This document shows, piece after piece, positions 13,199 to 32,666 of a DNA stretch of 36,308 nt (positions within the stretch are counted from its first letter, which is position 1; each line of letters opens with the position of its first letter). The notes below the pieces were generated by a model. That model worked only from the letters and a program-made list of their open reading frames with translations, was not told the origin of the DNA and searched no databases. Source of the stretch: a virus (lineage: Duplodnaviria > Heunggongvirae > Uroviricota > Caudoviricetes). The DNA lies in the IMG/VR virus record IMGVR_UViG_2563366905_000008; one strand, 5' to 3'. Position numbers and translations under genes: made by a program.

Positions 13199-13218
13199 TC
13201 TTAACGCGCTTTAAAATC
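13199..13218 (+). promoter_or_regulatory. Candidate late promoter element, copy 1 of TCTTAA-N5-TTTAAWATC
   Basis: TCTTAAcgcgcTTTAAAATC, 50 bp upstream of the first lysis gene; same motif and spacing recur at 26296 and 32647. Confidence 0.35.
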
Positions 13219-13268
13219 CTTCGCGCCCTGTATTTGTGATGCTGTCTCCACCAGACAAGGAGACACAC

Positions 13269-13619
13269 ATGAAAAACCTGAAAAAATTCATTCCCCCTGT
13301 TAAAAAACCTCGCCTCAGCGGCTGGCTGCTGACCTCAGTGCTGTTGCTGGGCACCATCGCTCTGGTCTCACCACAGCAGTTACCTGTTGTGATCTACAAG
13401 CTGGCACTCATCACACTGGCAGCAGTGCTGGGTTACTGGCTTGACCGTTCGCTCTTCCCCAAAGCCCGTCCCGGTCAGTACCTGAAACATGACGACAGGC
13501 TGATGGCTGAAGGGCGTTTCCCTGTGCAGACCGGCCTTCACCTTGTATTTTCTGCTGCGTTAATCCGCCGTGCACTGATTGTTGCAGCGGTCTGTCTGGC
13601 TGTGGCAACAGGACTGTGA
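13269..13619 (+). CDS. Membrane protein, holin candidate
   Basis: AAGGAGA RBS 5 nt before ATG at 13269; about three hydrophobic helices; immediately precedes the endolysin gene. Confidence 0.5.
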   Translation: MKNLKKFIPPVKKPRLSGWLLTSVLLLGTIALVSPQQLPVVIYKLALITLAAVLGYWLDRSLFPKARPGQYLKHDDRLMAEGRFPVQTGLHLVFSAALIRRALIVAAVCLAVATGL

Positions 13620-13621
13620 CC

Positions 13622-14350
13622 ATGAACTGGCCTCAAATCACCCTCATTATTCTGTTCGCCTTTGGTCTGGGCGTAACCGCCATCAGACACGGCGAACCAC
13701 GTAACGATAAATACAGCTTCTGGTGGCAGCTTGCTGGCAACCTGGTGATTGTCTGGCTGCTCTGGTGTGGCGGCTTTTTCAGCCAGGCATGCGCAGCACA
13801 ACCTCCGCAGGCTGCGCTGCAGTATCGCGATGATGTGATCCGTAATGCCCGGCTTGAATGGGGACTGTCTGCGCCGGTGGCCGATTTCGCCGCGCAACTG
13901 CATCAGGAAAGCGGCTGGCGACCTGATGCGGTCTCGCCGGCTGGCGCTCAGGGACTGGCGCAGTTCATGCCCGCCACTGCTGACTGGATAAGTCAGCTGA
14001 TGCCGGGGCTTAACAGCCGTGAGCCGTTTAATCCGGCATGGGCCATCCGGGCGCTGGTCAGCTATGACCGCTGGCTGTGGCAGCGCGTCAGCGCCGCCAG
14101 TGACTGCGAGCGTATGGCCATGACACTGTCGGGCTATAACGGTGGTCTGGGCTGGGTACAACGGGACAGGCGGCTTGCATCACAGAAAGGTCTGGACAGC
14201 ACCCGCTGGTTCGGACATGTCGCCACGGTGAATGCCGGACGCAATGCGGCCAGCTGGCGGGAGAACCGCCATTATCCGCAGCGCATCCTGCGCGAACTGG
14301 CACCGCGATATCTCACATGGGGAGGCAGCAGTTGTGTGGCATCTGGTTAA
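13622..14350 (+). CDS. Lytic transglycosylase endolysin (SLT domain) with N-terminal signal-anchor
   Basis: N-terminal hydrophobic segment ITLIILFAFGLGVTAI; SLT-type catalytic region QLHQESGWRPDAVSPAGAQGLAQFMPAT. Confidence 0.8.
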   Translation: MNWPQITLIILFAFGLGVTAIRHGEPRNDKYSFWWQLAGNLVIVWLLWCGGFFSQACAAQPPQAALQYRDDVIRNARLEWGLSAPVADFAAQLHQESGWRPDAVSPAGAQGLAQFMPATADWISQLMPGLNSREPFNPAWAIRALVSYDRWLWQRVSAASDCERMAMTLSGYNGGLGWVQRDRRLASQKGLDSTRWFGHVATVNAGRNAASWRENRHYPQRILRELAPRYLTWGGSSCVASG

Positions 14351-14984
14351 AAAGCTGCCGTGGCGCGGCATTCTGCTGGTCATTCTTATCAATGCCTTTC
14401 TGGTCGGCCTGTATGCCATGGGATACAGAAGTGGTCATGACTCTGCAAAGCGTGACGGTGATACCGCGCTCAGTCAGTTGCAGTCAGCATTTGACGCGTA
14501 CAAAACGGAGCAGGCAACGCTTGAGAATGCTGCGCTGCGGGCCTGGGCCAGACGGTATCAGGAGCAGGTGGCTGCCGGGCAGCGGGCTGAAGCCGGTTAT
14601 CTTGAGCAGATTGCTCAACTGGAGAGCCGGAATAAACAACTACAGGGGCAAATTAACGATGTCACACAGCGCTGGATTGATGAAAAAGGTAAGAGCCATC
14701 CCATTGAGTGCGTGTTTACTCGCGGTTTCGTGCGCCAGTACAACGCCGCACTCGGATATGACAACGCATCCGTCGACAGCGGTCATTCAGACTCAGTTGC
14801 CGCCGCTGGCACCCGCTCTGGCACAGCGACCGGGCAACCTGAAACCGCTGACGCCCGGTTACGCAATTCGGGTGTCTCCCAGCGTGACGTCCTCGCCAAC
14901 ATCATCGACAACGCAGGGCAATGTCGTCGCTGGCGAAACCAGATAAACGCGCTGCTGGATGAACGGGAAGGATTACAGAAATGA
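14334..14984 (+). CDS. i-spanin (Rz-like): N-terminal TM plus coiled coil
   Basis: GTG at 14334 with GGAGG 8 nt upstream; N-terminal TM WRGILLVILINAFLVGLYAM followed by a Gln/Ala-rich helical region. Confidence 0.55.
   Translation: MWHLVKKLPWRGILLVILINAFLVGLYAMGYRSGHDSAKRDGDTALSQLQSAFDAYKTEQATLENAALRAWARRYQEQVAAGQRAEAGYLEQIAQLESRNKQLQGQINDVTQRWIDEKGKSHPIECVFTRGFVRQYNAALGYDNASVDSGHSDSVAAAGTRSGTATGQPETADARLRNSGVSQRDVLANIIDNAGQCRRWRNQINALLDEREGLQK
14680..14946 (+). CDS. o-spanin (Rz1-like lipoprotein) nested in the +1 frame of the i-spanin gene
   Basis: MKKVRAIPLSACLLAVSC: signal peptide with lipobox-like AVSC, then a proline-rich mature region (PPLAPALAQRPGNLKPLTPGY). Confidence 0.55.
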   Translation: MKKVRAIPLSACLLAVSCASTTPHSDMTTHPSTAVIQTQLPPLAPALAQRPGNLKPLTPGYAIRVSPSVTSSPTSSTTQGNVVAGETR

Positions 14985-15307
14985 CACTGCAGGTTGAATT
15001 CTGGACGGTGGTGGGCTTTCTCATCACCTTCATGAGCTTTGTTGGCGGTATGGCCAAATGGCTGTTCAGTAAAGCGGAGGAACGTCAGGCTGCACGATTC
15101 GCCTCCCTTGAACAGGCCCTGCAACAGTCCGCCTCCAACTGGGGCGAGCTGGAAAAGGAATTTATGCGATTTAAAGCGGATTTACCGCTGAATTATGTCC
15201 GTCGCGAGGATTATATCCGTGGCCAGACAGTCATCGAGGCCAAACTGGACGCACTTTACAACAAACTGGAAGTGGTACAGCAGTACCGCAATACCGGAGG
15301 TCAATAA
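14981..15307 (+). CDS. Membrane protein (108 aa), lysis-associated candidate
   Basis: N-terminal TM FWTVVGFLITFMSFVGGMA followed by a coiled-coil region; ATGA overlap with the i-spanin stop. Confidence 0.5.
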   Translation: MTLQVEFWTVVGFLITFMSFVGGMAKWLFSKAEERQAARFASLEQALQQSASNWGELEKEFMRFKADLPLNYVRREDYIRGQTVIEAKLDALYNKLEVVQQYRNTGGQ

Positions 15308-15618
15308 TGGTCGATATTACCCGGGTACGCCGCGAATCCCTGCGCTGGAGTCTGCTGGTTGCCCTGAACAAAACCCGCCCTTACACCGCCAGCGAAACGT
15401 TGCTGCTGGACGTGTCCCGTGCCATCTACCCGGACACCACGCAACTGGAGCTGCGCCGGGAGCTTGATTATCTGGCAGATCGCAAAATGGTGGAGCTGGA
15501 GAAGAGACCGTCCGGTGACTGGTTTGCCGATCTGAGTCGCCTTGGTGTGGATATTGTGGAATACACCGTGGAATGCGGCCCGGGTATTGCCCGCCCGGAA
15601 AAATACTGGAGTGAGTGA
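15307..15618 (+). CDS. Hypothetical late protein (103 aa)
   Basis: ORF with coupled start/stop in the late operon, upstream of the terminase genes. Confidence 0.5.
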   Translation: MVDITRVRRESLRWSLLVALNKTRPYTASETLLLDVSRAIYPDTTQLELRRELDYLADRKMVELEKRPSGDWFADLSRLGVDIVEYTVECGPGIARPEKYWSE

Positions 15619-16169
15619 TTATGGGACGTCGCAGCAGCATTGATTCTCTGCCGACGGAGGTCCGCCGCTGGCTGGAGCGGGCACTGACGGAGAATAACTT
15701 CAGTGGATATGCCCGGCTGGAAGCCCTGCTGAAGGAGAAGGGATACGTCATCACCCGCTCTTCCCTGCAGCGGTTTGGCTACAAAATGGAGCGACAACTG
15801 GCCCGCATCCGCGCCGCCACCGAGGCCGCGCGTCTGATGGCACAGGAAGCCGGTGACGAGGCGGACGATCGTTCTGCCGGGATGATGGCACTGATTCAGA
15901 CCGAGATGCTGGATGTTCTGATGCGTCTGCAGGAAATCGGGGAAAATGATGACCCTGCAAAACGCGCAAAACTGCTGGCCACTGCTTCGGAAAGTATAGC
16001 CACACTGGTACGTGCTTCGGTGACCCACAAGCGATTCCGGGCCGAGGTTCTGGCAAAAATTGAGGCCCGGATGAATGCTCTGGAAAAACAGGCGAAGTCC
16101 GGTGACACCCGCCTGAGTCTGGAAACCCTGAAGATGGTGCGGGAACAGATTTACGGGGTGATCTCATGA
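15615..16169 (+). CDS. Terminase small subunit-like protein (Mu gp27-like)
   Basis: N-terminus MGRRSSIDSLPTEVRRWLERAL matches the conserved start of Mu gp27-family proteins as I recall it; immediately upstream of the large terminase. Confidence 0.6.
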   Translation: MIMGRRSSIDSLPTEVRRWLERALTENNFSGYARLEALLKEKGYVITRSSLQRFGYKMERQLARIRAATEAARLMAQEAGDEADDRSAGMMALIQTEMLDVLMRLQEIGENDDPAKRAKLLATASESIATLVRASVTHKRFRAEVLAKIEARMNALEKQAKSGDTRLSLETLKMVREQIYGVIS

Positions 16170-17482
16170 CAGCGGCCATTCAGCTGTATCCCTACCAGCA
16201 GGCGTGGTTTCTGGATCGTGCCCGTTTCAAGATTGGCATGTTTGCCCGCCAGACGGGCAAGACGTTCACCACCACGCTGGAACTGGTTGATGACTGTTTT
16301 GAAACAGAGGCATCAGGGGGACGCACTCGCTGGGTGATCCTATCGCGTGGGGAGCGTCAGGCAAAAGAAGCCATGGTGGAGGGGGTGAAAAAACACTGCA
16401 GCGCCTACCGGATGGCGGCCCGTGAGGTGGAAAGTTATTACCGTGCTGAAAGCGGCGAACGCTACACCATGCTTGAGGTGGAGTTACCCGGTGGCTCCCG
16501 TATCACGGCCCTGCCGGCAAATCCCGACACGGCACGTGGGTTTGCGGCTAACGTCTTTCTGGATGAGTTCGCCTTCCATGCCGACAGTCGCAAAATCTGG
16601 ACCGCCCTGTTTCCGGTCATTTCCAACGGCTACAGACTGCGTGTGACATCGACGCCGAACGGCAAGGGAAACAAGTTTTATGAACTGATGACCAGCAACG
16701 CCCTTGAAAATGTCTGGTCACGTCACATCGTGGATATTTACCGTGCCGTGCGCGACGGCCTTCCGCGTGACATTGCACAGATGCGACAGGCGCTCAACGA
16801 TGATGACGCCTGGGCACAGGAGTTTGAACTGAAGTGGCTGGATGAGGCATCGGCCTGGCTGACGTTTGAACTGATTGACGGCGTGGAGCACGATGCTGCC
16901 GGACTGCCGGTGCACTATACGGGTGGCCCCTGCTTTGTGGGGGTGGATATTGCTGTCCGTAATGACCTGTTTGTGATCTGGGTGCTTGAACAGGTGGGGG
17001 ATGTCTACTGGACCCGGGAAATCATCACCCGTAAACGGGCCACCTTTGCTGAGCAGGATGCTTTGCTGGATGACGTATTTTTCCGTTATCGCGTGCTGCG
17101 CTGCTGTATGGATCAGACAGGAATGGGGGAAAAGCCTGTGGAAGATGCTCAGGAGCGCCACGGCAGGAGTCGTGTGGAGGGGGTGATATTTAACAGCCCG
17201 AACAAGCTCACCCTCGCGACCCGTGGCAGGGAGATGTTTGAGGACCGCCGCCTGCGTATTCCGGCGGGAGATGTGGTACTGCGCAGTGATCTGCATAAAC
17301 TCCGTAAGATCACCGGACCTACCGGAGCGCCTCGCTTTGTGGCGGAAAGTGATGCAGCAGGTCACGCCGACCGTACATGGGCCTGTTTTCTGGCTATTAA
17401 CGCCACTGACGGACCGTCAGGGCCGGTGGTGGCGCGTTCGCGCCGCCGCCGTGAAGCCGCCCGCATGCTGGAGGGATTCTGA
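16166..17482 (+). CDS. Terminase large subunit
   Basis: 438 aa; Walker A-like ARQTGKT near the N-terminus; acidic nuclease-type motifs in the C-terminal half; position between small terminase and portal. Confidence 0.85.
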   Translation: MTAAIQLYPYQQAWFLDRARFKIGMFARQTGKTFTTTLELVDDCFETEASGGRTRWVILSRGERQAKEAMVEGVKKHCSAYRMAAREVESYYRAESGERYTMLEVELPGGSRITALPANPDTARGFAANVFLDEFAFHADSRKIWTALFPVISNGYRLRVTSTPNGKGNKFYELMTSNALENVWSRHIVDIYRAVRDGLPRDIAQMRQALNDDDAWAQEFELKWLDEASAWLTFELIDGVEHDAAGLPVHYTGGPCFVGVDIAVRNDLFVIWVLEQVGDVYWTREIITRKRATFAEQDALLDDVFFRYRVLRCCMDQTGMGEKPVEDAQERHGRSRVEGVIFNSPNKLTLATRGREMFEDRRLRIPAGDVVLRSDLHKLRKITGPTGAPRFVAESDAAGHADRTWACFLAINATDGPSGPVVARSRRRREAARMLEGF

Positions 17483-18975
17483 TGGCAAAAGGTATCTGGG
17501 TTTCACCCGATGAGTTCGTGGCGTTCACCGAACCCAAAAAATCACTGACCGCGCAGATTGCCTCGCGCAGTCGCGCCATCGACTTTTACGCTCTGGGAAT
17601 GTACCTGCCCAACCCTGATCCCATTCTCAAGGCTCAGGGACGGGATATCCGTATCTACCGCGAACTGCGCACCGACCCGCTGGTCGGGGGCTGTATCCGC
17701 AGACGTAAAGCAGCGCTCAAATCACTGGAGCGTGGACTGGAGCGCGGTCACGCTTCTGCCCGGGTCTTCCGTTTCATCCGCGACATGCTCGACGATCTGG
17801 ATCTGTCCCGCATCATCGGTGAGATGAGCGATGCCGTGCTCTACGGGTATCAGCCCTGTGAAATCATGTGGGGCCGTTCGGTCAGGGCGTGGGCGGTGAC
17901 GGATATTGTCGGCAAACCGCCTGAGTGGTTTCAGTTTGATACGGACAACTGCCTGCGCTTCCGGGCGCGTGATGCGGGTGTGGAGGGTGAGCTGCTGTCA
18001 CCGTCAAAATTCGTGGTGCCGGCACAGGATGCCTCGTATGACAATCCTTACGGTTTCCCTGACCTGTCCATGTGCTTCTGGCCGGTCGCCTTCAAGAAAG
18101 GCGGGATGAAATTCTGGCTCCGCTTTGCCGAAAAGTTTGGCTCCCCATGGGTGATCGGTAAGCACCCGAGGGGTGCAAATGATGCAGAGATTGAAAAACT
18201 GCTGGACTCCATGGAGCAGATGGTGGAGGACGCGGTGGCCGCCATCCCTGATGACAGCAGCATCGAACTCAAAGCAGCGGATGGCAAGGCGGACAGCAGC
18301 GAGGTATTCCGCGAGCTGATCACACTGTCACGCAGTGAGATCTCCATTGCATTACTCGGTCAGAATCAGACCACGGAAGCGAACAGTAACAAGGCCTCTG
18401 CACAGGCCGGGCTGGAGGTGACGGCTGATATCCGCGATGCGGATGCGGACATCATTCAGGCGGCAGTGAATCAGGTTATCAGAACGGTGGTCACCCTGAA
18501 CTTCGGCGATGTGCCGTGTCCGGTCTGGGCCATGTGGGAACAGGAGGCCATTGATGACACCCGCGCCACCCGCGACGAAAAACTCACCCGGGCGGGTCTG
18601 CGTCTGACCCCGCAGTACTTCATGCGGGAGTACCAGCTGCAGGAGGGGGATATTGACCTCTCTGATGCACCGGTTGCGGACGGGGCAGTGCCTGCGGAGT
18701 TTGCCGAGGCGATAAGCGCCGATCATGATGCACAACAGCAGCTTGACGACGCGCTGGACATTCTGATGAACGGAGGTGTGTTAAATGGCACGCTGGACCC
18801 CGTCCTGGCACCTCTGTTTAAGCGGGTCGAAAACGGGGTTAACCCGACTGAGCTGCTGGGCGAACTGGCGGAGCTCTACCCTCAGATGAACACGGACGAT
18901 CTGCAGGAACGGCTGGCCCGCATTCTCTTTGTGGCAAATATCCGGGGGCGTCTGCATGAGCGTGACAACGGCTGA
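17482..18975 (+). CDS. Portal protein (Mu gp29-like)
   Basis: 497 aa directly after the terminase with ATGA overlap; size and position typical of Mu-like portal. Confidence 0.8.
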   Translation: MAKGIWVSPDEFVAFTEPKKSLTAQIASRSRAIDFYALGMYLPNPDPILKAQGRDIRIYRELRTDPLVGGCIRRRKAALKSLERGLERGHASARVFRFIRDMLDDLDLSRIIGEMSDAVLYGYQPCEIMWGRSVRAWAVTDIVGKPPEWFQFDTDNCLRFRARDAGVEGELLSPSKFVVPAQDASYDNPYGFPDLSMCFWPVAFKKGGMKFWLRFAEKFGSPWVIGKHPRGANDAEIEKLLDSMEQMVEDAVAAIPDDSSIELKAADGKADSSEVFRELITLSRSEISIALLGQNQTTEANSNKASAQAGLEVTADIRDADADIIQAAVNQVIRTVVTLNFGDVPCPVWAMWEQEAIDDTRATRDEKLTRAGLRLTPQYFMREYQLQEGDIDLSDAPVADGAVPAEFAEAISADHDAQQQLDDALDILMNGGVLNGTLDPVLAPLFKRVENGVNPTELLGELAELYPQMNTDDLQERLARILFVANIRGRLHERDNG

Positions 18976-19777
18976 ACTGGCGTACTGCATGACGCTTCCC
19001 CCGAAGCGGGCAGTCAGTTACCTGAAGTCCAAAGGGTATCAGATTACCTGGGACTGGGAAGAAATGTGGCAGGAGGCCCATGCCCGCGCCTTTACCGTTG
19101 CTAAAGTGACCCGCCTGGATATCCTGGAAGATATTCGCGGGGCACTGCAGCAGGCTGTCGATGAAGGAAAAACCGATCGCTGGTTCCGGCAGGAGCTGGA
19201 GCCGGCGCTGAAGCGCAAGGGATGGTGGGGACCGCGTGACACGACTGACCCGGTAACGGGTGAACCGGTCACCATTCAGCAGGGCAGTCCGTGGCGGCTC
19301 GATACCATCTTTCGCACCAATATGTCCGTACTCTACAGCGCTGGTCGTTGGGCGGAGCAAATGGAAAACGTCGACGACAGGCCGTACTGGATGTATACCG
19401 GCATCAACGACAGCCATACCCGCAGGAGCCATCTGGCGCTGCATGGTCTGGTGCTGCGCTGGGATGACCCGTTCTGGCAGGCATTTTACCCGCCGAACGG
19501 CTGGCGCTGCCGCTGTAGTGTGATTGCCCTGAGTGCGGCGGATGTACGTGCCCGTGGCCTGAAGGTTATCAGCTCCGGCTCTGCCATGGGCCAGGAACTG
19601 AAACTGGTCTCAGAGAAAACCGGCGAAATGCGGAACGTGGCCACCTTTAATACCGGCACCACGAAGGTGACCACCGACGTCGGCTGGTCTTATGCACCGG
19701 GGGCAGCATACCGTCCCGACCTGGCCCGCTATCAGGGTACGCTTCAGCCACTGGCACAACAGGAACTGAGAGGATAA
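18956..19777 (+). CDS. Head morphogenesis protein (Mu F-like)
   Basis: ATG at 18956 (MSVTTAELAY...) overlapping the portal stop; Mu gene order portal then F. Confidence 0.7.
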   Translation: MSVTTAELAYCMTLPPKRAVSYLKSKGYQITWDWEEMWQEAHARAFTVAKVTRLDILEDIRGALQQAVDEGKTDRWFRQELEPALKRKGWWGPRDTTDPVTGEPVTIQQGSPWRLDTIFRTNMSVLYSAGRWAEQMENVDDRPYWMYTGINDSHTRRSHLALHGLVLRWDDPFWQAFYPPNGWRCRCSVIALSAADVRARGLKVISSGSAMGQELKLVSEKTGEMRNVATFNTGTTKVTTDVGWSYAPGAAYRPDLARYQGTLQPLAQQELRG

Positions 19778-19779
19778 CA

Positions 19780-20238
19780 ATGGCTTCCGATAACCTGGTC
19801 AGTATCACCATTAACGATAAATCCCTGCGCCGGAGCCTCCGTGCGCTGGACCTGGCTGCCACAGACCTGGAGCCCGCGATGCGCAAAATCGCCGGAACCC
19901 TGCTGGCGGAAACACAGTTTAACTTTCTTGATGAGGGGCGTCCGGGGTGGATCCCCTCGCTGGCAGCGGAAGAGCGTGACGGGCAGACACTGCAGGATAC
20001 CGGACGTCTGATGGGGTCAGTATCAACCGACCATGATGACCGGCAGGCTGTTGTGGGGACCAACGTTGTTTACGGTGCCATTCACCAGTTCGGGGGTAAA
20101 ACGGGGCGTAATGAGTCTGTTGAACTTCCGGCCCGCCCGTTCCTGCCGGTGACGGGGGATGGAGAACTCCAGCCTGAAGTGGTAATCCCCATCCTCGATA
20201 CCATTGTCCGCCATCTTGAATCAGCGGCCCGTCTCTGA
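19780..20238 (+). CDS. Virion morphogenesis protein (Mu G-like)
   Basis: 152 aa; position after the F-like gene; size as expected for Mu G. Confidence 0.7.
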   Translation: MASDNLVSITINDKSLRRSLRALDLAATDLEPAMRKIAGTLLAETQFNFLDEGRPGWIPSLAAEERDGQTLQDTGRLMGSVSTDHDDRQAVVGTNVVYGAIHQFGGKTGRNESVELPARPFLPVTGDGELQPEVVIPILDTIVRHLESAARL

Positions 20239-20282
20239 GGTTTCTCCCTTCAGGCGGGTGATTTATCATTGCCAGCGGATGA

Positions 20283-20326
20283 GGGGCTGTATTACCTTTA
20301 TAAAGGCTTTACAGCCTCTGTTTTAT
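20283..20326 (+). terminator. Candidate intrinsic terminator after G-like gene
   Basis: Stem GGCTGTA / TACAGCC with an inner CCTTTATAAAGG palindrome, followed by TCTGTTTTAT. Confidence 0.45.
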
Positions 20327-20377
20327 AACCGCCTCCGGTTCACCGCATTGCTTTCCCTGTCCTTCTCCCCTGATGTT

Positions 20378-20397
20378 TTCTAAAGCAGATTAAAATC
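20378..20397 (+). promoter_or_regulatory. Degenerate copy of the late-promoter motif upstream of the scaffold/protease gene
   Basis: TTCTAAagcagaTTAAAATC, about 55 bp upstream of the ATG at 20453; 4/6 and 8/9 matches to the two halves of the motif. Confidence 0.3.
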
Positions 20398-25464: not shown

Positions 25465-25985
25465 TGTCAAAGATTGAGATAAACCGAATCACGAATGCCA
25501 ACATCTATCTGGATGGTACTAACCTGCTGGGACGGGCTGAGGAAGTTAAACTCCCCGATGTCTCCATGATTATGCAGGAGCACAAGGCACTGGGGATGGT
25601 GGGTAAGGTGGAACTCCCGGCTGGTTTTGACAAACTGGAAGGCGAAATCAAATGGAACAGCTTTTACCGCGATGCGATGCTGTCTGCCGCGAACCCGTAC
25701 AGGTCGCTGGCACTGCAGTGTCGTTCCAGCGTCCAGCGCTACAGCTCGCAGGGGCTGATCGACGAAATCCCGCTGGTCACCTTCCTGACGATTATGTTCA
25801 AGAAGAACCCGCTGGGGACGTTCAAACAGCACGAGAACGCCGAGTTCTCCAGTAGCTTCACCTGCACGTATATCAGACAGGTACTGGATGGTGAAGAGCT
25901 GCTGCAACTGGACTATCTGGCCAACATCTTCCGGGTCGGCGGTGTTGATCAACTGACTGACTACCGCATCAATATCGGGGGCTGA
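25464..25985 (+). CDS. Tail tube protein
   Basis: 173 aa, ATGA-coupled to the sheath gene; P2 FII / Mu M-like size and position. Confidence 0.8.
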   Translation: MSKIEINRITNANIYLDGTNLLGRAEEVKLPDVSMIMQEHKALGMVGKVELPAGFDKLEGEIKWNSFYRDAMLSAANPYRSLALQCRSSVQRYSSQGLIDEIPLVTFLTIMFKKNPLGTFKQHENAEFSSSFTCTYIRQVLDGEELLQLDYLANIFRVGGVDQLTDYRINIGG

Positions 25986-25987
25986 CG

Positions 25988-26269
25988 GTGACCGTCGAGA
26001 TTGAAGATAAAGGCGGAAACTGTGGTTCGATTGGTATGGGGAATGGCACGTGGTTTACCCTCCTTGATATTCCGGGGGTGGAACACCTTTTTAATACCCA
26101 GAAAACCAATGACCCGATTGACTGCACACGTTCAAAGGCCCGCAAACTGGCGGATTTGATTGAGGCATGGGAGCCTCCCGACCACTGGTTCTCCGGCACC
26201 GGCAAATCTGAAGGAAAGGCACTTCTCATCGCCTTCCTGCGTAACTGCAAAGGCTTTCGCACTCGCTGA
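25988..26269 (+). CDS. Hypothetical small protein (93 aa), possible moron inside the tail operon
   Basis: GTG at 25988 two nt after the tube stop with a G-rich RBS; complex, non-repetitive product; followed directly by an intrinsic terminator. Confidence 0.4.
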   Translation: MTVEIEDKGGNCGSIGMGNGTWFTLLDIPGVEHLFNTQKTNDPIDCTRSKARKLADLIEAWEPPDHWFSGTGKSEGKALLIAFLRNCKGFRTR

Positions 26270-26275
26270 CATCAC

Positions 26276-26299
26276 AGGGGCTTCGGCCCCTTTCTTCTT
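26276..26299 (+). terminator. Intrinsic terminator after the 93-aa ORF
   Basis: GGGGC-TTCG-GCCCC hairpin followed by TTTCTTCTT. Confidence 0.55.
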
Positions 26300-26315
26300 A
26301 ATCCCCTTTAATATC
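26296..26315 (+). promoter_or_regulatory. Candidate late promoter element, copy of TCTTAA-N5-TTTAAWATC
   Basis: TCTTAAtccccTTTAATATC, 52 bp upstream of the tail chaperone start; overlaps the T-tract of the preceding terminator. Confidence 0.35.
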
Positions 26316-26367
26316 TGCCAGCCTCACCACCGGACATACTGCTCTGAACTTACACAGGAGCACGATC

Positions 26368-26703
26368 ATGTCACAGACCCAGTCCGATACTTTTACGCTG
26401 TCTTATCCCTTCACCACTGCTGCCGGTACCAGAATTGAGCAGGTTGAACTGAAACGCCTGACGGTAAAAGACCTGAAGCAGGTGCGCAAAATCAGCAAAA
26501 ACCCGGCAGACTGGGACGAACCGCTGATTGCCCGCAGTACTGGTCTTCTCCCGGAAGATCTCGACAATATGGACCTGGCTGATTACCTGCAGTTACAGAA
26601 ACGATTTCAGCTCATCACGGGGATGGGTGAGAGCGACAAAGGCGCTGACGCAGGCGCAGGGGCTGCTGGCGAGATGGTTCCGGTTTCAGCCGGGGGAGAT
26701 TGA
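26368..26703 (+). CDS. Tail assembly chaperone, short form (P2 E-like)
   Basis: 111 aa with AGGAG RBS; position between tube and tape measure genes. Confidence 0.7.
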   Translation: MSQTQSDTFTLSYPFTTAAGTRIEQVELKRLTVKDLKQVRKISKNPADWDEPLIARSTGLLPEDLDNMDLADYLQLQKRFQLITGMGESDKGADAGAGAAGEMVPVSAGGD

Positions 26704-26785
26704 TGCCCTCGATACTGACGATCTGGAGATGTGGCTGGAGCAGGCTGAAGAGCAAATCAAAAGCGAGTACGGCGACAAATCATAG
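26368..26785 (+). CDS. Putative frameshifted long form of tail assembly chaperone (E+E'-like), +1 frame extension
   Basis: A second ORF (track 26528..26785) in the +1 frame overlaps the 3' end of the chaperone gene. Only its C-terminal part (EIDALDTDDLEMWLEQAEEQIKSEYGDKS) looks protein-like. The -1 frame gives an Arg-rich, implausible peptide. Confidence 0.35.
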
Positions 26786-26860
26786 TACAGACAGCCGCCA
26801 GTAGCGGCTGTTCTGCGTTATCCCCTCACGTCTTTTCACCTTCCCCGGAGGTTAACCACT

Positions 26861-29812
26861 ATGTCGGGACAGTTTTCAGTCGGCGTTGTTATCGGCGGGA
26901 TGATTGGCAGCACATTCCGTTCTGCAATGAGCGGTACCCGCCGTGCGCTTGATTCCCTGAGCGATACCTCACGCCGCCTGCAGGAACGTCAGAACGCTTT
27001 AACCCGTGCAACAGAACGTTATGGTCAACTGGGTTCTTCCCGGATGCAGCATCTCAACAGCGAGCTGCTGCGGGTAAGCCGCACCATGGAGCAAATTGAG
27101 CGCCAGCAGCGCCGTCTGTCAGCGGCATCCGCTACCAGTGATGCGCTGAAAGCTAACCGCATGGCGCTGTATGGTCAGGGGATTGAAGCATATGGCATGG
27201 CACAGACTGTTTATCATACGGTTTCCCCTGCCGTTCAGCAGTCCATGTCTTTTCAGGACAAAATGATTGATATGTCGATCACCGCAAAATATGACAATAA
27301 AACGCGGGATGCACTTGCCGGACAGATAAAAGGCTGGGCGCTTAAATACAATCAGTATCAGGATGAGCTGCAGGAGGCGGTGGGTTCGCTCATCAGCGAC
27401 AATATTGATAACTTGTCAGATATCGGTTTTCTGATGCCGGATATTGCCCGCGCGGCAACGGCAACACGCACGTCATCTCAGGACTGGGCAAAAGTGGCCG
27501 CAGTCTGGCAAAACTCCCTGAAAGGTGCCGCCAGAGATTTTGGTGCCGTTCAGAATATTATGGCTTATGCCGGTGACCAGGGGTCATTTGAAATCCCGGA
27601 TCAGGTCAAATGGATGCAGTCCCTGGCCCCAATGATGGCGGGCGTTGCCAGTGGAAAAGAGGCTGTTGCTGAAATCGGAGCCAGTCTCCAGATAGCAAAA
27701 ATCGGTGCAGGTTCCACCGACGAAGCAGCCAATAATTTTAAAAACTTTCTTACCAAAATTTTTGCCCGCGATACTCAGAAACAGTTTGCTGATCTGGGTA
27801 TTGATTTGCAGGGATCTATTGCGAGTTATAAGGCTGCGGGGATCTCTCCGATTGAAGGGATGTTGAGTGTTATAGAACGTTACCTCAATGCCAAAAGCCC
27901 CGAAGCGCTGGCCGGCTTCAAATCTGCCATGAAAATAAAGAATGATACGGCAAGAGATGAGGCACTTCAGGCTCTGGCGAAAAACTTTGGTCTGGGTGAT
28001 ATGTTCGCGGATATGCAGGTCATGGCATTTATCCGCCCGATGCTGGCCAACATGGACAGATATCGCGAGATCCGCGCCGGTGCTCTCAGGGCTGCGGATA
28101 ACGATTTGCTTGCCAGTGCTTATGATCAGCGGCTGAAATCTCCCCTTGAAGCCACTAAAGCACTTATGGTCAGCAGTCGCGATCTGGCTATTACGCTGGG
28201 CGATCAACTCGCCCCCTCTTTTATTTCTCTGACTCAGGAGTTGATCCCACTCATTCAGGGGACAAAACACTGGGTAGCGACTCACCCGCAATTTGTCAGT
28301 GGGGCTTTTAAGCTCATCAGTGCGCTCCTTGCGATTAAGATAGCGACTGTTGGTCTCAAACTGGGGCTGAATCTCCTTATTTCCCCCTTTGTGAACGTCT
28401 GGAAAACTGCTGTTTTACTTCGGGCCAACTGGCTTCGTCTGTCGCTCGCACTGGGGCAAGGCGGTAAGCTCCGCTGGCTGGTGACCGGATTTAGCGCCGT
28501 CGCCAGAGGAGCCAGAACACTGAGTGGCGTGCTCTCCGGGGGGCTGGTTCGCGGAATTATGCTCGCCGGACGTGCTGTTCTCTGGATTGGACGTGCGCTG
28601 ATGATGAATCCCATCGGTCTCGTTATCACCGCTGTCGCGGCAGCAGCTTACCTTATCTACCGCAACTGGGGGGCAGTCAGTGGCTGGTTTAAACAGCGCT
28701 GGGCAGACATTCAGGAAGCCTTTAACGGCGGCATTGTGGGAACTGGTAAGTTGCTGATTAACTGGTCGCCGGCAGGCCTGCTCTATAAAGCCTTTGCGGC
28801 TGCGCTGAAATATTTCGGCGTTGCTCTGCCGGCAAAGTTCACCGACTTCGGTGGCCATCTTATCGACGGTCTGATTAACGGTATCAAAAACAAATGGGGG
28901 TCGCTCAAATCCAGTGTAACCGGAATGGGTGACAGCATCAGTAGCTGGTTTAAACAGTGCTGGGCTGACATTCAGGAAGCCTTTAACGGCGGTATCGCGG
29001 GAACTGGTAAGCTGCTGATTAACTGGTCGCCGGCAGGTCTGCTCTGTAAAGCCTTTGCAGCTGCGCTGAAATATCTTGGTGTTGATCTGCCGGCAAAGTT
29101 CACCGACTTCGGTGGCCATCTTGTCGACGGTCTGATTAACGGTATCAAAAACAAATGGGAGTCGCTCAAATCCAGTGTAACCGGAATGGGTGACAGCATC
29201 AGTGGCTGGTTCAGCGAAAAGCTGGGCATTCATTCGCCGAGCCGCGTGTTTATGGGCTTTGGTGACAATATCGCGCAGGGGGCCGCCATTGGCCTGCAGC
29301 GGACCACTCCGCTTGCAGCTCTGGCCGGGCAGCGAATGGCCAGTGAACTGCTCCCCAGAATGCCCGTGAGCATTCAGGGGCCAGAAATACGGGATAACAC
29401 TTCAGGTGTTCGCTTCAGTATGCCGTTGCCCGATATCAACGGGTTTATGTCGTCTGCTAAAAATGCGATCGGAGCCGTAATCAATAGTTTGTCTTCCATG
29501 CCCGTTATTCCGCTCTCCACCCGGGCATCGGTTTTACCAGGGCAACGTCTGGCAAATGAGATGACACCGGATGTTCCCCGTATCCCCTCGCCTGAAATCC
29601 TGGCTGCCGGATATTCAGGCCGTGGTGCAGCTGCAACCGGCGGTGGAACGTCTGGTGGTATCCAGGTCAGCTTTAATCCTCAGTTTTTCCTCAATGGCAG
29701 GGAAACCACAGCGCCTGCAGGACTGACTGGTGCCCTGAATATGAGTCTGCATGAGCTGGAAAAAATGCTGGAGCGTCTGCTGGCTCAGAAACAACGTAAG
29801 GAGTACCGCTGA
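26861..29812 (+). CDS. Tail tape measure protein
   Basis: 983 aa, largely helical, central hydrophobic segments and Gly-rich C-terminal part; follows the chaperone pair. Confidence 0.85.
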   Translation: MSGQFSVGVVIGGMIGSTFRSAMSGTRRALDSLSDTSRRLQERQNALTRATERYGQLGSSRMQHLNSELLRVSRTMEQIERQQRRLSAASATSDALKANRMALYGQGIEAYGMAQTVYHTVSPAVQQSMSFQDKMIDMSITAKYDNKTRDALAGQIKGWALKYNQYQDELQEAVGSLISDNIDNLSDIGFLMPDIARAATATRTSSQDWAKVAAVWQNSLKGAARDFGAVQNIMAYAGDQGSFEIPDQVKWMQSLAPMMAGVASGKEAVAEIGASLQIAKIGAGSTDEAANNFKNFLTKIFARDTQKQFADLGIDLQGSIASYKAAGISPIEGMLSVIERYLNAKSPEALAGFKSAMKIKNDTARDEALQALAKNFGLGDMFADMQVMAFIRPMLANMDRYREIRAGALRAADNDLLASAYDQRLKSPLEATKALMVSSRDLAITLGDQLAPSFISLTQELIPLIQGTKHWVATHPQFVSGAFKLISALLAIKIATVGLKLGLNLLISPFVNVWKTAVLLRANWLRLSLALGQGGKLRWLVTGFSAVARGARTLSGVLSGGLVRGIMLAGRAVLWIGRALMMNPIGLVITAVAAAAYLIYRNWGAVSGWFKQRWADIQEAFNGGIVGTGKLLINWSPAGLLYKAFAAALKYFGVALPAKFTDFGGHLIDGLINGIKNKWGSLKSSVTGMGDSISSWFKQCWADIQEAFNGGIAGTGKLLINWSPAGLLCKAFAAALKYLGVDLPAKFTDFGGHLVDGLINGIKNKWESLKSSVTGMGDSISGWFSEKLGIHSPSRVFMGFGDNIAQGAAIGLQRTTPLAALAGQRMASELLPRMPVSIQGPEIRDNTSGVRFSMPLPDINGFMSSAKNAIGAVINSLSSMPVIPLSTRASVLPGQRLANEMTPDVPRIPSPEILAAGYSGRGAAATGGGTSGGIQVSFNPQFFLNGRETTAPAGLTGALNMSLHELEKMLERLLAQKQRKEYR
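28685..29206 (+). repeat. In-frame tandem duplication (2 x 261 bp) inside the tape measure gene
   Basis: Copy 1 28685-28945 and copy 2 28946-29206 encode 87-aa units differing at 8 residues (WFKQRWADIQEAFNGG... vs WFKQCWADIQEAFNGG...). Confidence 0.8.
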
Positions 29813-30696
29813 TGTTTGCCGTACTGGGTGATATTGAGTTTGAGCTGATTACCTACTGGGACGGCTTCGAGGCCACGTTCGGCGTCGATTATGCGGAGCA
29901 TGCCCGCATCGGGGGTAAGCCTGGCCTGCAGTTCGTCGGCGACAGGCTGGACGAAATCCAGATAACTCTGGTTTTCCATCAGCATTATTGTGTACCCGAC
30001 GTGGAGCTGGCGAGACTGCGAACAGCCATGAAAGCCCATCAGGCACTGGCGCTGGTCTTCGGCAACGGTGACTATCGCGGCTGGTTCGTGATTACCGATG
30101 TGACTGCAACCAGCGAGCAGACTGACAGTACCGGCAACGTGCTGGCTGTCAGTGCCACCGTGTCTCTCCGGGAATACACCGGTGACCCGAAAAATCCTCT
30201 GCAACCACCGGCAATACGCACGAAGCTCCCGGGTGTCGGGGCGGTCTCCGGTGCCATTCCTTCACCTTCAGGGGTGGCGCAGTTCATCCGCAACGGCGTC
30301 AACTATGCGAAACAGGCGCAGTCTGTACTCCAGACCACTATCAGCGCCGTTCGGGTGACACAGAAAATGAAGGATAACCCCGTTGTCGCACTGACCCGTG
30401 TGCCGGGGCTGATGAGCGGACTGGGTAATATCTCCGGGGCTCTGGGGAAAAGTGTTCCGGCGTTTAACGCACTCTCTGAATCCATGCCCGATGCCATCAG
30501 TCTGGCCAGAACAGCCAGCGAAGCAGCCACGTATGTACAGCAGGCACAGTCTGCGCTGAGTGGTGTGGACAAAAGAAATATTGCAGGTGCTCTGGATACC
30601 GTTTCCGGGCAGCTTAACGCCGCCGGCACAGCATTCAACCGCATGTCTCCGGGATTAAGTGCAATGGCCGCCAGAATACTGACGAGGAGTGTGTGA
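29812..30696 (+). CDS. Tail protein with P2 gpU-like N-terminal domain and Ala/Ser-rich C-terminal extension
   Basis: ATGA-coupled to the tape measure gene; N-terminal ~130 aa resemble gpU-type tail proteins; position after the tape measure gene. Confidence 0.6.
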   Translation: MFAVLGDIEFELITYWDGFEATFGVDYAEHARIGGKPGLQFVGDRLDEIQITLVFHQHYCVPDVELARLRTAMKAHQALALVFGNGDYRGWFVITDVTATSEQTDSTGNVLAVSATVSLREYTGDPKNPLQPPAIRTKLPGVGAVSGAIPSPSGVAQFIRNGVNYAKQAQSVLQTTISAVRVTQKMKDNPVVALTRVPGLMSGLGNISGALGKSVPAFNALSESMPDAISLARTASEAATYVQQAQSALSGVDKRNIAGALDTVSGQLNAAGTAFNRMSPGLSAMAARILTRSV

Positions 30697-30908
30697 TGTT
30701 TCTTGAACATGTTACCCGTGACGGAGAGCGCTGGGATTCGCTGGCATGGCAGTACTACGGTGACCCGCTGGGCTATCCCCGGATTATTGCCGCCAATCCG
30801 CACGTGGCCATCACGCCGGTGCTGCCCTCCGGGCTGTTGTTACTGATCCCGGTGATTGAGGCTGAAGAAGCCCGTACAGAAGAGGATATTGCCCCATGGC
30901 TGAGATAA
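30693..30908 (+). CDS. Tail protein X-like (P2 gpX family)
   Basis: 71 aa; motif WDSLAWQYYGDPLGYPRIIAANPHV resembles gpX-type tail proteins. Confidence 0.65.
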   Translation: MMFLEHVTRDGERWDSLAWQYYGDPLGYPRIIAANPHVAITPVLPSGLLLLIPVIEAEEARTEEDIAPWLR

Positions 30909-32050
30909 ACAGCACTGCGCAAGTCACATCAGCGTTAACCGGCGTCAGCGATGTGCTGACACCGGTGTTCACTCTGTGGTATCTGCAGAAAAACATCACC
31001 TCTGATATCGCGCCTTATGTCACCCGTGTGACCTGGAGCGATAACATCAAAAATGAGTCCGATACCATTGAGGTGGAACTGGACGACACCGATGGCCGCT
31101 GGCTGGATAAATGGTATCCGGGCAAGGGTGACACGCTGACGCTGAAAATGGGCTATCAGGGCGAGAAGCTGCTGTCCTGCGGTACGTTCTCTATAGACGA
31201 GATCGAAGTGAGTTCGCCCGCTTCCGTTGTTTCTATCCGTGGGGTGGCCACCTCGGTTAACAGTGCCCTGCGGACTAAAACCAGTCGTGGTTTTGAGAAC
31301 ACCACGCTGGCGGCCATCGCGGGAAGGATTGCCCGAAAGCACCGGCTGAAACTGGTGGGCAGCATTGAGACCATCAGAATCGACCGGGTGACCCAGTATG
31401 CTGAAACCGACGTGGGTTTTCTGCGCCGGCTGGCCAGCGAGTATGGTTATGCAGTGAAAGTGGTCAGTGACCAGCTGATTTTTTCTCATCTGGCCACACT
31501 GCGCAGTCAGGAGCCGGTCAGGCAGTTAAAACCGCAGGATGTGGCCCGCTTTTCCCTGCGTGACACCATCAACCGGGTCTATAAATCTGCAAAGGTAAAA
31601 CACCAGAAAAGCAGCAGTAAAAAACTGATCGTCTACGAAGCTGATGGTGGCACCCGTGAAAGCGACAAAAAGCTCAAAGGTGGTAAGGTTACCAGCGCTG
31701 ACTCACTTAAAGTTAACAGCCGCGTCAGCGACCCGGACAGTGCCCGGATTAAAGCGGATTCAGCACTGGCCAGACATAACGAATACCAGCAGAACGGCTC
31801 CCTGACGCTGACGGGAACACCTCAACTGACAGCAGGCAACAAAATTGAACTGGTGGGTTTTGGGCAGTTATCCGGGCCATGGCTCATAACCACTGCCCGC
31901 CATGCGTTTGACCGTAACAGCGGCTACACCACAGAGCTGGAAGTGGCACGGGGGCCAGTCACAAGAGGGAAAAAACAAAAAACTCAGAAACTCACGGTTT
32001 ATCACCCGGATGGCAGTACATCGACGGTGATTAAGGAGAAGAAAAAATGA
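30896..32050 (+). CDS. Tail protein D-like (late control D family)
   Basis: 384 aa; position after the X-like gene and before the spike gene; basic C-terminal tail. Confidence 0.75.
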   Translation: MAEINSTAQVTSALTGVSDVLTPVFTLWYLQKNITSDIAPYVTRVTWSDNIKNESDTIEVELDDTDGRWLDKWYPGKGDTLTLKMGYQGEKLLSCGTFSIDEIEVSSPASVVSIRGVATSVNSALRTKTSRGFENTTLAAIAGRIARKHRLKLVGSIETIRIDRVTQYAETDVGFLRRLASEYGYAVKVVSDQLIFSHLATLRSQEPVRQLKPQDVARFSLRDTINRVYKSAKVKHQKSSSKKLIVYEADGGTRESDKKLKGGKVTSADSLKVNSRVSDPDSARIKADSALARHNEYQQNGSLTLTGTPQLTAGNKIELVGFGQLSGPWLITTARHAFDRNSGYTTELEVARGPVTRGKKQKTQKLTVYHPDGSTSTVIKEKKK

Positions 32051-32643
32051 CTGGTGTCACTCGTCAGGTCGGTACGGTCAGTGCCGTTGATGCCGACAGG
32101 GTTCAGGCCCGCGTTCGTCTGCCTGAATGCGATAACCTGCGCACAAACTGGCTTAACGTGCTGCAGCGCAATACCCAGGATAACAAAGATTACTGGCTCC
32201 CTGACGTGGGGGAGCAGGTTGAGGTGCTGCTCGATGCCAACGGCGAGGATGGTGTTATTCTGGGCGCGGTGTATTCAGACGTCGATAAACCACCGTTCAG
32301 TGACAAAAATATCCGGGGAACCCGGTTTGCTGATGGTGCAGAGTACAGCTACAACCGGAAGACGCACACTCTGACCATCCGGGGCGGCATTGAGCATATT
32401 GTCATTGAGTGTGGTGCTGATGTGGTATTGAAAACACAGAAAGCCACGATTGACGCACCAGAAACCGAACTTACCGGAGATCTGCGTGTCAGGGGTAAGC
32501 TGATTTACGAAGGAGGCATGGCGGGTTCTGGTGGTAAAGGTGTTACCGCGACCATCCATGGCAATATCGAGATTAAAGGGAATGCCCACTCCACAGGTAG
32601 CATGCTGTCTGACGGCCAGAACTCTAATCACCATTCCCACTGA
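32047..32643 (+). CDS. Baseplate spike/assembly protein V-like
   Basis: 198 aa, AAGGAG RBS; Gly-rich C-terminus; position before the W-like gene. Confidence 0.75.
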   Translation: MTGVTRQVGTVSAVDADRVQARVRLPECDNLRTNWLNVLQRNTQDNKDYWLPDVGEQVEVLLDANGEDGVILGAVYSDVDKPPFSDKNIRGTRFADGAEYSYNRKTHTLTIRGGIEHIVIECGADVVLKTQKATIDAPETELTGDLRVRGKLIYEGGMAGSGGKGVTATIHGNIEIKGNAHSTGSMLSDGQNSNHHSH

Positions 32644-32646
32644 CCT

Positions 32647-32666
32647 TCTTAAACGCCTTTAATATC
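32647..32666 (+). promoter_or_regulatory. Candidate late promoter element, copy of TCTTAA-N5-TTTAAWATC
   Basis: TCTTAAacgccTTTAATATC, 32 bp upstream of the W-like ATG. Confidence 0.35.

Follow-up and report, generated by a model that had tools for sequence, protein, structure and literature searches.

A two-part element, most likely a Mor-type activator box with a weak -10 hexamer, before the late operons of a BcepMu-type prophage

Layout of the prophage and its late arm

The window (the whole stretch of 36,308 nucleotides that was analysed, IMG/VR record IMGVR_UViG_2563366905_000008) is a Mu-like transposable prophage of the BcepMu type from E. coli. The early genes are read leftward, and their operon ends with a single activator gene of the Mor/C family, at the place given by the initial annotation:

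2252-2638, minus strand: Mor/C-family activator gene at the far end of the leftward early operon (Pfam PF08765, E = 9e-44)

Several small early proteins of unassigned function are encoded between 2610 and 5000. The late tail and baseplate genes are P2-like (V, W, J, I, FI, FII, T, U, X, D). The gene order is that of the BcepMu-type phages (Bcepmuvirus: BcepMu and phiE255; also Klebsiella KP12 and Escherichia PhiKM), which likewise carry a Mor gene at the left end.

Five gaps of more than 20 bp interrupt the late arm: before the holin gene, 20239-20452, 26269-26366, 32643-32696 and 26703-26859. The last of these was left without annotation by PGAP and is most likely a frameshifted extension of the tail chaperone, by comparison with BcepMu gp42/gp43. 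Each of the others contains one copy of the 20-bp motif TCTTAA-N5-TTTAAWATC, as initially annotated.

The motif and its downstream hexamer

Three exact copies of the motif, all on the plus strand (13199, 26296 and 32647), were found in the whole window, and none in dinucleotide-preserving shuffles (mean 0.00, maximum 0). When up to 3 mismatches were allowed, 6 matches were obtained against 0.52 expected, including the degenerate copy at 20378. The start codons follow closely (ATG at 13269, 20453, 26368 and 32698): the distances from motif end to ATG were 50, 55, 52 and 31 nt respectively, which bears out the range of 30-55 bp reported earlier.

At its core the motif has a 16-bp dyad, CTTAA-N6-TTAAW with a G+C-rich N6, i.e. 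the two 5-bp inverted repeats and 6-bp G/C-rich spacer of Mor/C promoters. A second element, nAnnCTG, lies exactly 19 bp past the motif end in all four copies; its first six bases form a hexamer with A at position 2 and T at position 6, and the distance from the dyad centre to the first base of the hexamer is 30.5 bp at every site. Four invariant columns within seven were obtained in 5 of 20000 shuffles and in 1 of 20000 sets of random 60-mers from the window (p about 1e-4). When both strands were scanned with the relaxed two-part pattern TAA-N6-TTA-N25-A..CT, these four sites were the only matches. A further TTAA-N6-TTAA at 1981-1994 adjoins a terminator and has no hexamer.

The features of the four candidate late promoters are as follows:

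13199-13218, plus strand: putative activator box of late promoter 1 (lysis and head operon), exact copy of the motif
13200-13215, plus strand: promoter 1 dyad CTTAA-CGCGCT-TTAAA, then AATC; matches the two-part pattern
13238-13243, plus strand: promoter 1 -10-like hexamer GATGCT at the common 19-bp offset; 1 of 6 matches in the -35 region
13250, plus strand: promoter 1 predicted start, an A preceded by C
13269, plus strand: holin ATG, with AAGGAG upstream
20304-20317: weak terminator-like hairpin upstream of promoter 2
20378-20397, plus strand: putative activator box of late promoter 2 (protease/scaffold, head and tail sheath operon), 3 mismatches
20379-20394, plus strand: promoter 2 dyad TCTAA-AGCAGA-TTAAA, its spacer less G/C-rich than the other three; matches the two-part pattern
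20417-20422, plus strand: promoter 2 -10-like hexamer CAAACT; predicted start near 20429, ATG at 20453
26276-26291, plus strand: intrinsic-terminator-like hairpin AGGGGCTTCGGCCCCT, whose T-rich tail enters the left arm of the promoter 3 box
26296-26315, plus strand: putative activator box of late promoter 3 (tail chaperone, tape measure and baseplate hub operon), exact copy
26297-26312, plus strand: promoter 3 dyad CTTAA-TCCCCT-TTAAT
26335-26340, plus strand: promoter 3 -10-like hexamer CATACT; predicted start A at 26347, ATG at 26368 with AGGAG upstream
32647-32666, plus strand: putative activator box of late promoter 4 (baseplate W-J-I and tail fibre operon), exact copy
32648-32663, plus strand: promoter 4 dyad CTTAA-ACGCCT-TTAAT
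32686-32691, plus strand: promoter 4 -10-like hexamer AATACT, followed by 6 nt and then the W ATG at 32698-32700

No -35 was found at the four sites (at most 2 of 6 matches at spacers of 16-18 bp), in agreement with the initial annotation, and a scan for consensus sigma70 promoters returned nothing at these positions. The hexamers are themselves poor as -10 elements, so their assignment depends on spacing and conservation.

Conservation in related phages

A scan of the prophage and its relatives, as the initial annotation had suggested, detected the two-part element at the four window sites. BcepMu and a Pasteurella phage carry it in the four corresponding late gaps, as do 77 of 80 related prophage loci (Enterobacterales, Burkholderiales, Pseudomonas and Neisseriales, i.e. 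gamma- and beta-proteobacteria), and it likewise occupies each of these gaps in the other BcepMu-type phages named above. In the 80 loci, the late strand gave 226 pattern matches, which cluster at the four syntenic positions, and the opposite strand gave 22. A site occupies the promoter 1 position in 31 related loci as well as in BcepMu and the Pasteurella phage, the promoter 2 position is the best conserved (75 of 80 loci), and the promoter 3 and 4 positions gave 65 and 53 matches among the related loci; since the 80 loci share descent, all these counts overstate independence. Selection on the sites is indicated because the sequence between dyad, hexamer and ATG is not conserved.

In BcepMu, the dyad at the promoter 2 position is CGTAA-AGCCGA-TTAAA, and a terminator followed by a box is likewise found before promoter 3. 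The dyad of Pasteurella phage AFS-2018a is a near-perfect palindrome, TTTAAAGCGCTTTAAA, with TATACT, TATTCT, TAAACT or TAATAT 23 nt on. Komp_PAO1_1 has no more than four such dyads in 40 kb, each of them with the hexamer. For an offset test, 278 syntenic dyads were picked without regard to the hexamer: A...T was present at offset 37 in 224 of them (81%), at other offsets in 0-16%, and in 2 of 45 dyads located elsewhere. The hexamer consensus is sAtaCT-G; position 1 is almost never T (C or G in 179 of 199 unique homologous sites), and C-A occupies the predicted -1/+1 in 126 of the 199.

These data bear on the initial annotation of TTTAAWAT as a -10 element. In a reading of this kind, TAAWAT within the motif would be the -10, with transcription starting about 7 nt on and TCTTAA acting as a close upstream activator contact. 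TAAAAT and TAATAT do resemble TATAAT well in three of the E. coli copies, and they too have no upstream -35, so that an activator would still be needed. Among the 199 unique homologous sites, however, TAAWAT ends in G in 119, in T in 75, in C in 4 and in A in 1, and a TAAAAG hexamer is without the T that sigma70 -10 elements conserve most strongly. The same reading leaves the 6-bp spacing between TCTTAA and the hexamer without a role, and it does not account for the palindromic symmetry (near-perfect to perfect in the Pasteurella phage), the rigid downstream hexamer, the C-A at the other start or the W ATG at 7 nt; we regard it as very unlikely. TTTAAWAT is instead the right arm of the proposed activator dyad plus adjacent bases, with a last T that is often G in relatives, and the motif most likely marks late promoters as the docking site of a Mor-type activator, not as a -10 box.

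It is extremely improbable that the motif is no promoter at all, i.e. that it is terminator-associated, a site used in recombination or by a transposase, or a small repeat that spread through common descent. The promoter 3 copy does abut the terminator hairpin at 26276-26291, and the repeat at 1981-1994 also adjoins a terminator, but a convincing hairpin lies upstream of only one of the four sites. Moreover, all the sites are on one strand and upstream of operon starts, and the distances to the hexamer, the C-A and the W ATG are fixed across very diverged sequences.

The Mor-type activator and phage Mu

A tblastn search of the window with its own Mor and with the Mor and C proteins of Mu detected no second Mor/C gene; a cascade with a single activator step is therefore probable, against two in Mu. 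The window Mor is only about 30% identical to Mu Mor. When it was aligned with Mu Mor and C, the conserved DNA-binding residues of the family (GG..Y.P and F.G.N..EL..Y) were present, and the C-terminal QGQLF was also kept; a C-terminal Q..LF clamp-binding-like motif is shared with Mu C (PMC12867686). By analogy with Mu, this protein is proposed to bind the dyads.

The Mor site of Mu spans 16 bp, with two 5-bp inverted repeats and a 6-bp G/C-rich spacer (PMC4390567, PMC4287176); it is centred at -43.5 (PMC4390567), as is the dyad of the C site (PMC2582627). The +1 of Mu Pm was set at position 9224 of AF083977 by fit to the published -57G and -54A, which places the published -51 to -36 dyad at AGTAA-AGCCGG-TTAAT and the -10 at TATCCT. 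This hexamer lies 30.5 bp from the dyad centre, as in the window. The right arm TTAAT is identical, the -10 is likewise imperfect and no -35 is present, and in both phages the activator gene ends the early operon and adjoins gemA. In contrast, the left arm is CTTAA in the window and AGTAA in Mu, and the early and late arms diverge in the window but are colinear in Mu. Furthermore, Mu Mor drives one promoter, whose product C then acts on the late genes, whereas four or five late promoters appear to be under direct control of the window Mor. A point against the proposal comes from cryo-EM work suggesting that Mor and C, bound as tetramers, cover about 26 bp (bioRxiv 10.1101/2025.05.02.651988): no second upstream pair of half-sites was evident in the window.

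The late promoters could instead be served by another small early phage protein, or by a host protein, bound to the dyad. This is unlikely, although small early proteins of unassigned function are at hand and Mor is linked to the dyad by analogy. Pseudomonas phage JBD25 encodes a Mor homologue (40% identical) and has none of these dyads, so specificity does not simply follow family membership. On the other side, the dyad matches the published Mor site in architecture, in position and in its right arm, TTAAT, and the motif is kept from Pasteurellaceae to Burkholderia hosts, which argues for a phage-encoded factor. In addition, all the complete genomes examined in which the motif occurs encode a Mor with 45% or more identity to that of the window (BcepMu 57%, Pasteurella phage AFS-2018a 45%).

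Boxes of other activator types were also sought. The late promoters of P2 and 186 depend on Ogr/B zinc-finger activators, with TGT-N12-ACA near -55. As in those phages, the P2-like tail and baseplate genes of the window would be under activator-dependent promoters, but none of the 11 TGT-N12-ACA matches was at the right distance from any site, no Ogr-like gene is annotated in the window, and the promoter positions differ from P2 PV and PF. The MuC consensus TTAT-N5-6-ATAA (PMC12867686) had zero matches in the whole window; the sites are not late promoters of the MuC type. The absence of both boxes likewise counts against another binder.

The W start codon and a candidate dam promoter

Among 53 relatives, the W ATG follows the hexamer end at 7 nt in 40 and at 8 nt in 6, with differing intervening sequence, and the spacing is likewise kept in BcepMu and in the Pasteurella phage. 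No Shine-Dalgarno was found before the W ATG of the window (32698-32700). As the A of this ATG is the predicted +1, the W mRNA would be leaderless, and a transcript starting at the ATG would explain the fixed distance of 7-8 nt. Leaderless phage mRNA is known from lambda cI, transcribed from PRM. The W gene resembles it in having its start codon at the predicted +1 without a Shine-Dalgarno; it differs in being a late structural gene, with a predicted start and a spacing that is conserved across a phage family.

A fifth candidate site, on the opposite strand, has a dyad and a hexamer of its own:

11755-11798, minus strand: candidate Mor-type promoter facing dam (10845-11609, minus strand)
11798-11783, minus strand: dyad CCTAA-ACCACA-TTAAC
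11760-11755, minus strand: hexamer CATCAT, predicted start near 11748

On the window statistics alone this site could be chance. A dyad with a CAnnnT hexamer at 25-26 nt was present in 14 of 15 unique IMG/VR loci (Dam at least 80% identical) and in KP12, and the sequence between dyad and hexamer diverges among those loci. The site probably drives dam on the minus strand.

Proposed late control

Late control by a Mor-type activator is an expected kind of control for a phage, and we hold with good confidence that the late arm of this prophage is run by one Mor/C activator through a module of dyad and weak -10. If it acts as Mu Mor does at Pm, the activator would bind the 16-bp dyad as a dimer or tetramer. 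The dyad, centred about 43 bp before the transcription start, would stand in for the missing -35, and the activator would bring host sigma70 RNA polymerase to the weak hexamer 30.5 bp past the dyad centre. Transcription is predicted to begin about 7 nt past the hexamer (13250, 20429, 26347 and 32698), which would divide the late arm into one unit for lysis and head, a second for protease, head and sheath, a third for tail chaperone, tape measure and hub, and a fourth for baseplate W and fibres. The last of these transcripts would start at the A of the W ATG, with leaderless translation of W, and dam would probably be driven from the fifth site on the other strand. The activator-dependent late promoters proposed in the initial annotation thus stand as to their kind (no -35, position before late operons, Mor-site architecture and a Mor/C gene), by sequence and analogy, but not as to their anatomy.

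For the family as a whole we lean, by a little, towards a joint reading: that BcepMu-type phages of gamma- and beta-proteobacteria use a single Mor-type activator for their late genes, with the rigid module "Mor box, 23 nt, weak -10" at four syntenic positions, that the leaderless W mRNA is conserved from Pasteurella to Pseudomonas, and that a fifth promoter reads into dam by way of a leader of about 140 nt, which is conserved and structured and may hide the ribosome-binding site. In the searchable literature we found no start mapping, footprint or reporter assay for this prophage or for BcepMu-type phages, and no description of their late promoters, of which an earlier mention is possible.

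The late, C-dependent promoters of Mu are also several, with a -10, no -35 and a dyad at -43.5 (PMC2582627). The parallel drawn initially between the four sites and the four late promoters of Mu holds for two positions, before the lysis genes (Plys) and before the protease/scaffold gene I (PI). It does not extend to the remainder: there is a fifth candidate site facing dam, and neither a second activator nor a Pm-like middle promoter was found in the window. The tail promoters lie before the tail chaperone and W in the window, but before P in Mu. Control of a DNA-modification gene by the same activator may be a further likeness (Pmom in Mu, the dam candidate here), although com-mom of Mu is unrelated to the dam gene of the window.

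Prophage identity and gene layout

E. coli strain A20 carries a prophage to which the late arm of the window is 99.7% identical; among the phages of the collection searched, Escherichia phage PhiKM, Klebsiella phage KP12 and Phi06_2974 B were nearest. On the basis of the A20-copy annotation and the BcepMu genome, the window is a BcepMu-type transposable prophage. The type is common: the late arm was matched in 646 of 5426 complete E. coli genomes (about 1 in 9), and such prophages occur in many other proteobacteria. Genes are placed as follows:

from ~10288 downward to the Mor-family gene, minus strand: early genes
7044-8813, minus strand: transposase A
5867-7072, minus strand: B
between B and gemA in the early gene order, minus strand: gam
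2610-3059, minus strand: gemA
2252-2638, minus strand: Mor-family gene, at the far end of the early genes
from 13269, plus strand: late genes, the first being the holin gene (ATG at 13269)

The protein encoded at 2252-2638, initially annotated as Mor/C-like, is indeed a family member (Pfam PF08765, E = 9e-44). In the window, no second Mor/C gene was found by tblastn with the window Mor, Mu Mor and Mu C, and no promoter resembling Pm, the Mor-activated middle promoter of phage Mu, was found. The small genes 11801-12016 (minus) and 12015-12419 (plus) start back to back with a 2-bp overlap at 12015-12016, which leaves no space for promoters between them; one of these gene calls may be wrong.

Anatomy of the probable late promoters

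The initial annotation had reported a 20-bp motif, TCTTAA-N5-TTTAAWATC, upstream of late operons. This observation holds, because three exact copies are present in the window (13199, 26296 and 32647), shuffled sequence giving none, and because the few non-coding gaps of the late arm contain one copy each, including the degenerate copy at 20378 (3 mismatches). The copies precede the holin/lysis, protease/scaffold, tail chaperone and baseplate W genes. The motif core is a 16-bp dyad: CTTAA, six bases that are mostly G/C, and TTAAW.

When the four sites were aligned on the motif, a second common element was found exactly 19 bp after it: the hexamers GATGCT, CAAACT, CATACT and AATACT, with G as the next base in every case. 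A stretch of seven columns with four invariant ones at a single offset arose in 5 of 20000 shuffles and, for random 60-mers drawn from the window, in 1 of 20000 sets. A position weight matrix that covered all 52 columns of the four sites was overfitted (in BcepMu, its genome-wide ranks were first for the site before gp49, third before gp32 and tenth before the holin gene) and simple two-part patterns were used instead. With both strands scanned, TAA-N6-TTA-N25-A..CT matched the window at the four sites only.

The relaxed dyad by itself is not rare in the window (8 observed, about 5 expected from base composition by our own estimate). TAA-N6-TTA dyads at 32181 and 32496, inside gene V, lack a hexamer and were taken as chance occurrences. 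A perfect TTAA-N6-TTAA (1981-1994) lies between the two small genes located past Mor on the minus strand (1991-2233 and 1272-1895); it was rejected as a promoter, having no correctly spaced hexamer on either strand and being followed on the minus strand by an intrinsic-terminator-like hairpin (~1961-1931), and may be a chance match (about 0.25 expected, again our own estimate).

Upstream of the four hexamers, the best match to TTGACA at 16-18 bp spacing was 2/6. A consensus promoter scan gave no match at the four sites and a single weak sigma70-like match on the plus strand of the whole late arm; neither Ogr-type nor MuC-type boxes were found at the four sites. Sites resembling sigma70-consensus promoters were fewer in 13050-33000 than in shuffled sequence (4 versus 9.1 +/- 2.9 expected).

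Two terminator-like hairpins were located in the late arm:

20304-20317: weak terminator-like hairpin, before the second box
26276-26291: strong terminator-like hairpin, abutting the third box

Together with the boxes, these hairpins divide the late arm into four units, of which the first two match Mu Plys and PI in position (gene order).

Comparison with phage Mu

The Mor site of Mu Pm consists of two 5-bp inverted repeats and a G/C-rich hexanucleotide spacer, 16 bp in total (PMC4390567); it is centred at -43.5 and spans -51 to -36, in place of a -35 element (PMC4390567; PMC4287176). A related C dyad, also centred at -43.5, is present at the four Mu late promoters, which have a -10 without a -35 (PMC2582627). 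The +1 of Pm was set in AF083977 to make -57 a G and -54 an A, according to the published positions, which gives AGTAA-AGCCGG-TTAAT as the Pm dyad and TATCCT as its -10. Between the dyad centre and the first hexamer base there are 30.5 bp, in Pm as in all four window sites, whose right arm (TTAAT or TTAAA) matches that of Pm. On this comparison with Mu, the motif is best read as an activator box that occupies roughly -51 to -32 and the downstream hexamer as the real -10, with predicted starts at 13250, 20429, 26347 and 32698. The MuC consensus, TTAT-N5-6-ATAA (PMC12867686), has zero matches in the window.

Conservation in relatives

In BcepMu, whose Mor is 57% identical to that of the window, the two-part element precedes the holin gene, gp32, gp41 and gp49, the same four gaps as in the window. 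Pasteurella phage AFS-2018a (Mor 45% identical) is A+T-rich, with colinear early and late genes, and the element precedes its lysis, protease, tail chaperone and W genes. Its dyad is a near-perfect palindrome, TTTAAAGCGCTTTAAA, and 'AATC' plus 19 nt leads to much better hexamers (TATACT, TATTCT, TAAACT and TAATAT). Extra TTTAAA half-sites with a period of 10-11 bp were seen upstream of the AFS-2018a scaffold and tail-chaperone boxes (16724-16770 and 22242-22262); they would suit the higher-order (tetramer) binding of Mor-type proteins that Mu cryo-EM reports. Pseudomonas phage Komp_PAO1_1 has just four TAA-N6-TTA dyads in 40 kb, all four with the hexamer.

For a broader survey, one genome per species was scanned with a head-tail adaptor protein alignment, giving 80 loci of ~20 kb each from Enterobacterales, Burkholderiales, Pseudomonas and Neisseriales. 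The pattern TAA-N6-TTA-N25-A...T was found in 77 of these loci, with 226 matches on the late strand versus 22 on the other; by syntenic position, matches lay before the lysis (31), scaffold (75), chaperone (65) and W (53) genes, and two fell elsewhere. To avoid circularity, dyads were also picked without regard to the hexamer: A...T stood at offset 37 in 224 of the 278 dyads of the syntenic zones (81%), at any other offset in 0-16% of them, and at offset 37 in 2 of 45 dyads outside these zones. A non-promoter role of the motif would fit none of these positional regularities and is considered highly improbable.

Columns left free by the search pattern were counted over 199 unique sites. The left flank is T-rich; TTA is followed by A (192/199), by A two bases on (183/199), and then by K and C. 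Hexamer position 1 is C or G in 179 sites and T in 1, position 5 is C or A, G directly follows the hexamer in 147, and C-A occupies the predicted -1/+1 in 126. In the initial annotation, TTTAAWAT within the motif had been likened to a sigma70 -10 element. That anatomy is disfavoured, both by all the evidence for the downstream hexamer and by the base at the final T, which is G in most relatives (of the 199 homologous sites, 119 have G here and 75 have T). A hairpin, AACGCC...GGCGTT, around the W box was rejected as functional since it is not conserved among relatives.

Proposed activation by the Mor homologue

Anatomy, geometry and conservation of the window sites, and the activator gene, were observed directly. 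For the mechanism, we infer that the dyad is bound by the Mor homologue, which, like Mor at Pm, would bring sigma70 RNA polymerase to the weak -10. Acting directly at late promoters, it would place late expression one step after early expression, which suggests that this lineage uses one step with a Mor-like box in place of the two-step cascade of Mu (Mor, then C). Binding of the dyad by another factor would suit the B3-like Pseudomonas phage JBD25, which has a Mor homologue (40% identical) and zero such dyads, and which therefore gives no independent support to the link between motif and Mor; we regard such a factor as unlikely.

The C-terminus of the window Mor (2252-2290, minus) contains QGQLF, then an acidic tail, EDDDEPDDDRD. 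QGQLF resembles QPDLF, the clamp-binding motif needed for MuC function (PMC12867686), and from this likeness a coupling of Mor to the sliding clamp is possible.

This kind of element is already known from Mu; what is new is the revised anatomy, together with some minor unexpected features. No earlier account of these promoters or of mapped starts was found in the searchable literature, whose coverage excludes the BcepMu genome paper. The outcome is a testable map of late transcription, with five predicted starts (including that of the dam site described below), operator bases and an activator gene.

Start codons at the predicted promoters

In the window, six bases separate the hexamer from the W start codon (AATACT gccccc ATG, 32686-32700), and a Shine-Dalgarno sequence is absent. 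BcepMu and AFS-2018a have the same arrangement, likewise with no visible Shine-Dalgarno sequence. Among relatives, the distance from the end of the hexamer to the first start codon in the W frame is 7 nt at 40 of 53 sites and 8 nt at 6, and the six intervening bases vary from clade to clade. A transcript whose first base is the A of the ATG would account for this spacing, which supports the downstream hexamer as the -10. A leaderless late W mRNA, kept across the family, is thus predicted from sequence. The same ATG arrangement was found at 17 of 75 scaffold promoters.

The motif can be used for annotating late operons and for fixing start codons. For gp32 of BcepMu, the ATG chosen in the annotation (18850) shares bases with GATGAT, the predicted -10 hexamer (18849-18864 region). 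Another ATG in frame, at 18862, lies 8 nt after the hexamer and is aligned to the N-terminus of the E. coli protein; this makes an error in the annotated start probable, and the gp32 mRNA may be leaderless.

A fifth candidate site and the dam leader

A further candidate faces the dam methylase gene (10845-11609):

11798-11783, minus strand: fifth dyad, CCTAA-ACCACA-TTAAC
11760-11755, minus strand: hexamer CATCAT, at the same spacing as in the four sites

On window data alone, this site could be due to chance. Among unique IMG/VR loci with Dam at least 80% identical, 14 of 15 have a dyad at -184 to -193 and CAnnnT 25-26 nt later, as does KP12, and the sequence between dyad and hexamer diverges among those loci. 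This candidate site recalls the C-dependent mom promoter of Mu.

The predicted transcript would start near 11748 with GAAAGAACGACC, 139 nt upstream of the dam ATG at 11609, giving a ~140-nt leader (11610-11748, minus). With the conserved, predicted leaderless W start, this structured leader adds a small, new and checkable observation on phage gene expression. The leader is conserved and structured in relatives, with one hairpin having 5 compensatory pairs; an Rfam search with it gave no real match. In a long-range helix that covers the ribosome-binding region, CTGTGAGCC pairs with GGCTTACAG immediately upstream of the dam ATG; a small alternative hairpin (CACAG/CTGTG) could compete with this helix. 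Through the leader, dam may be controlled at the level of translation, in a way comparable to the Com and mom system of Mu.
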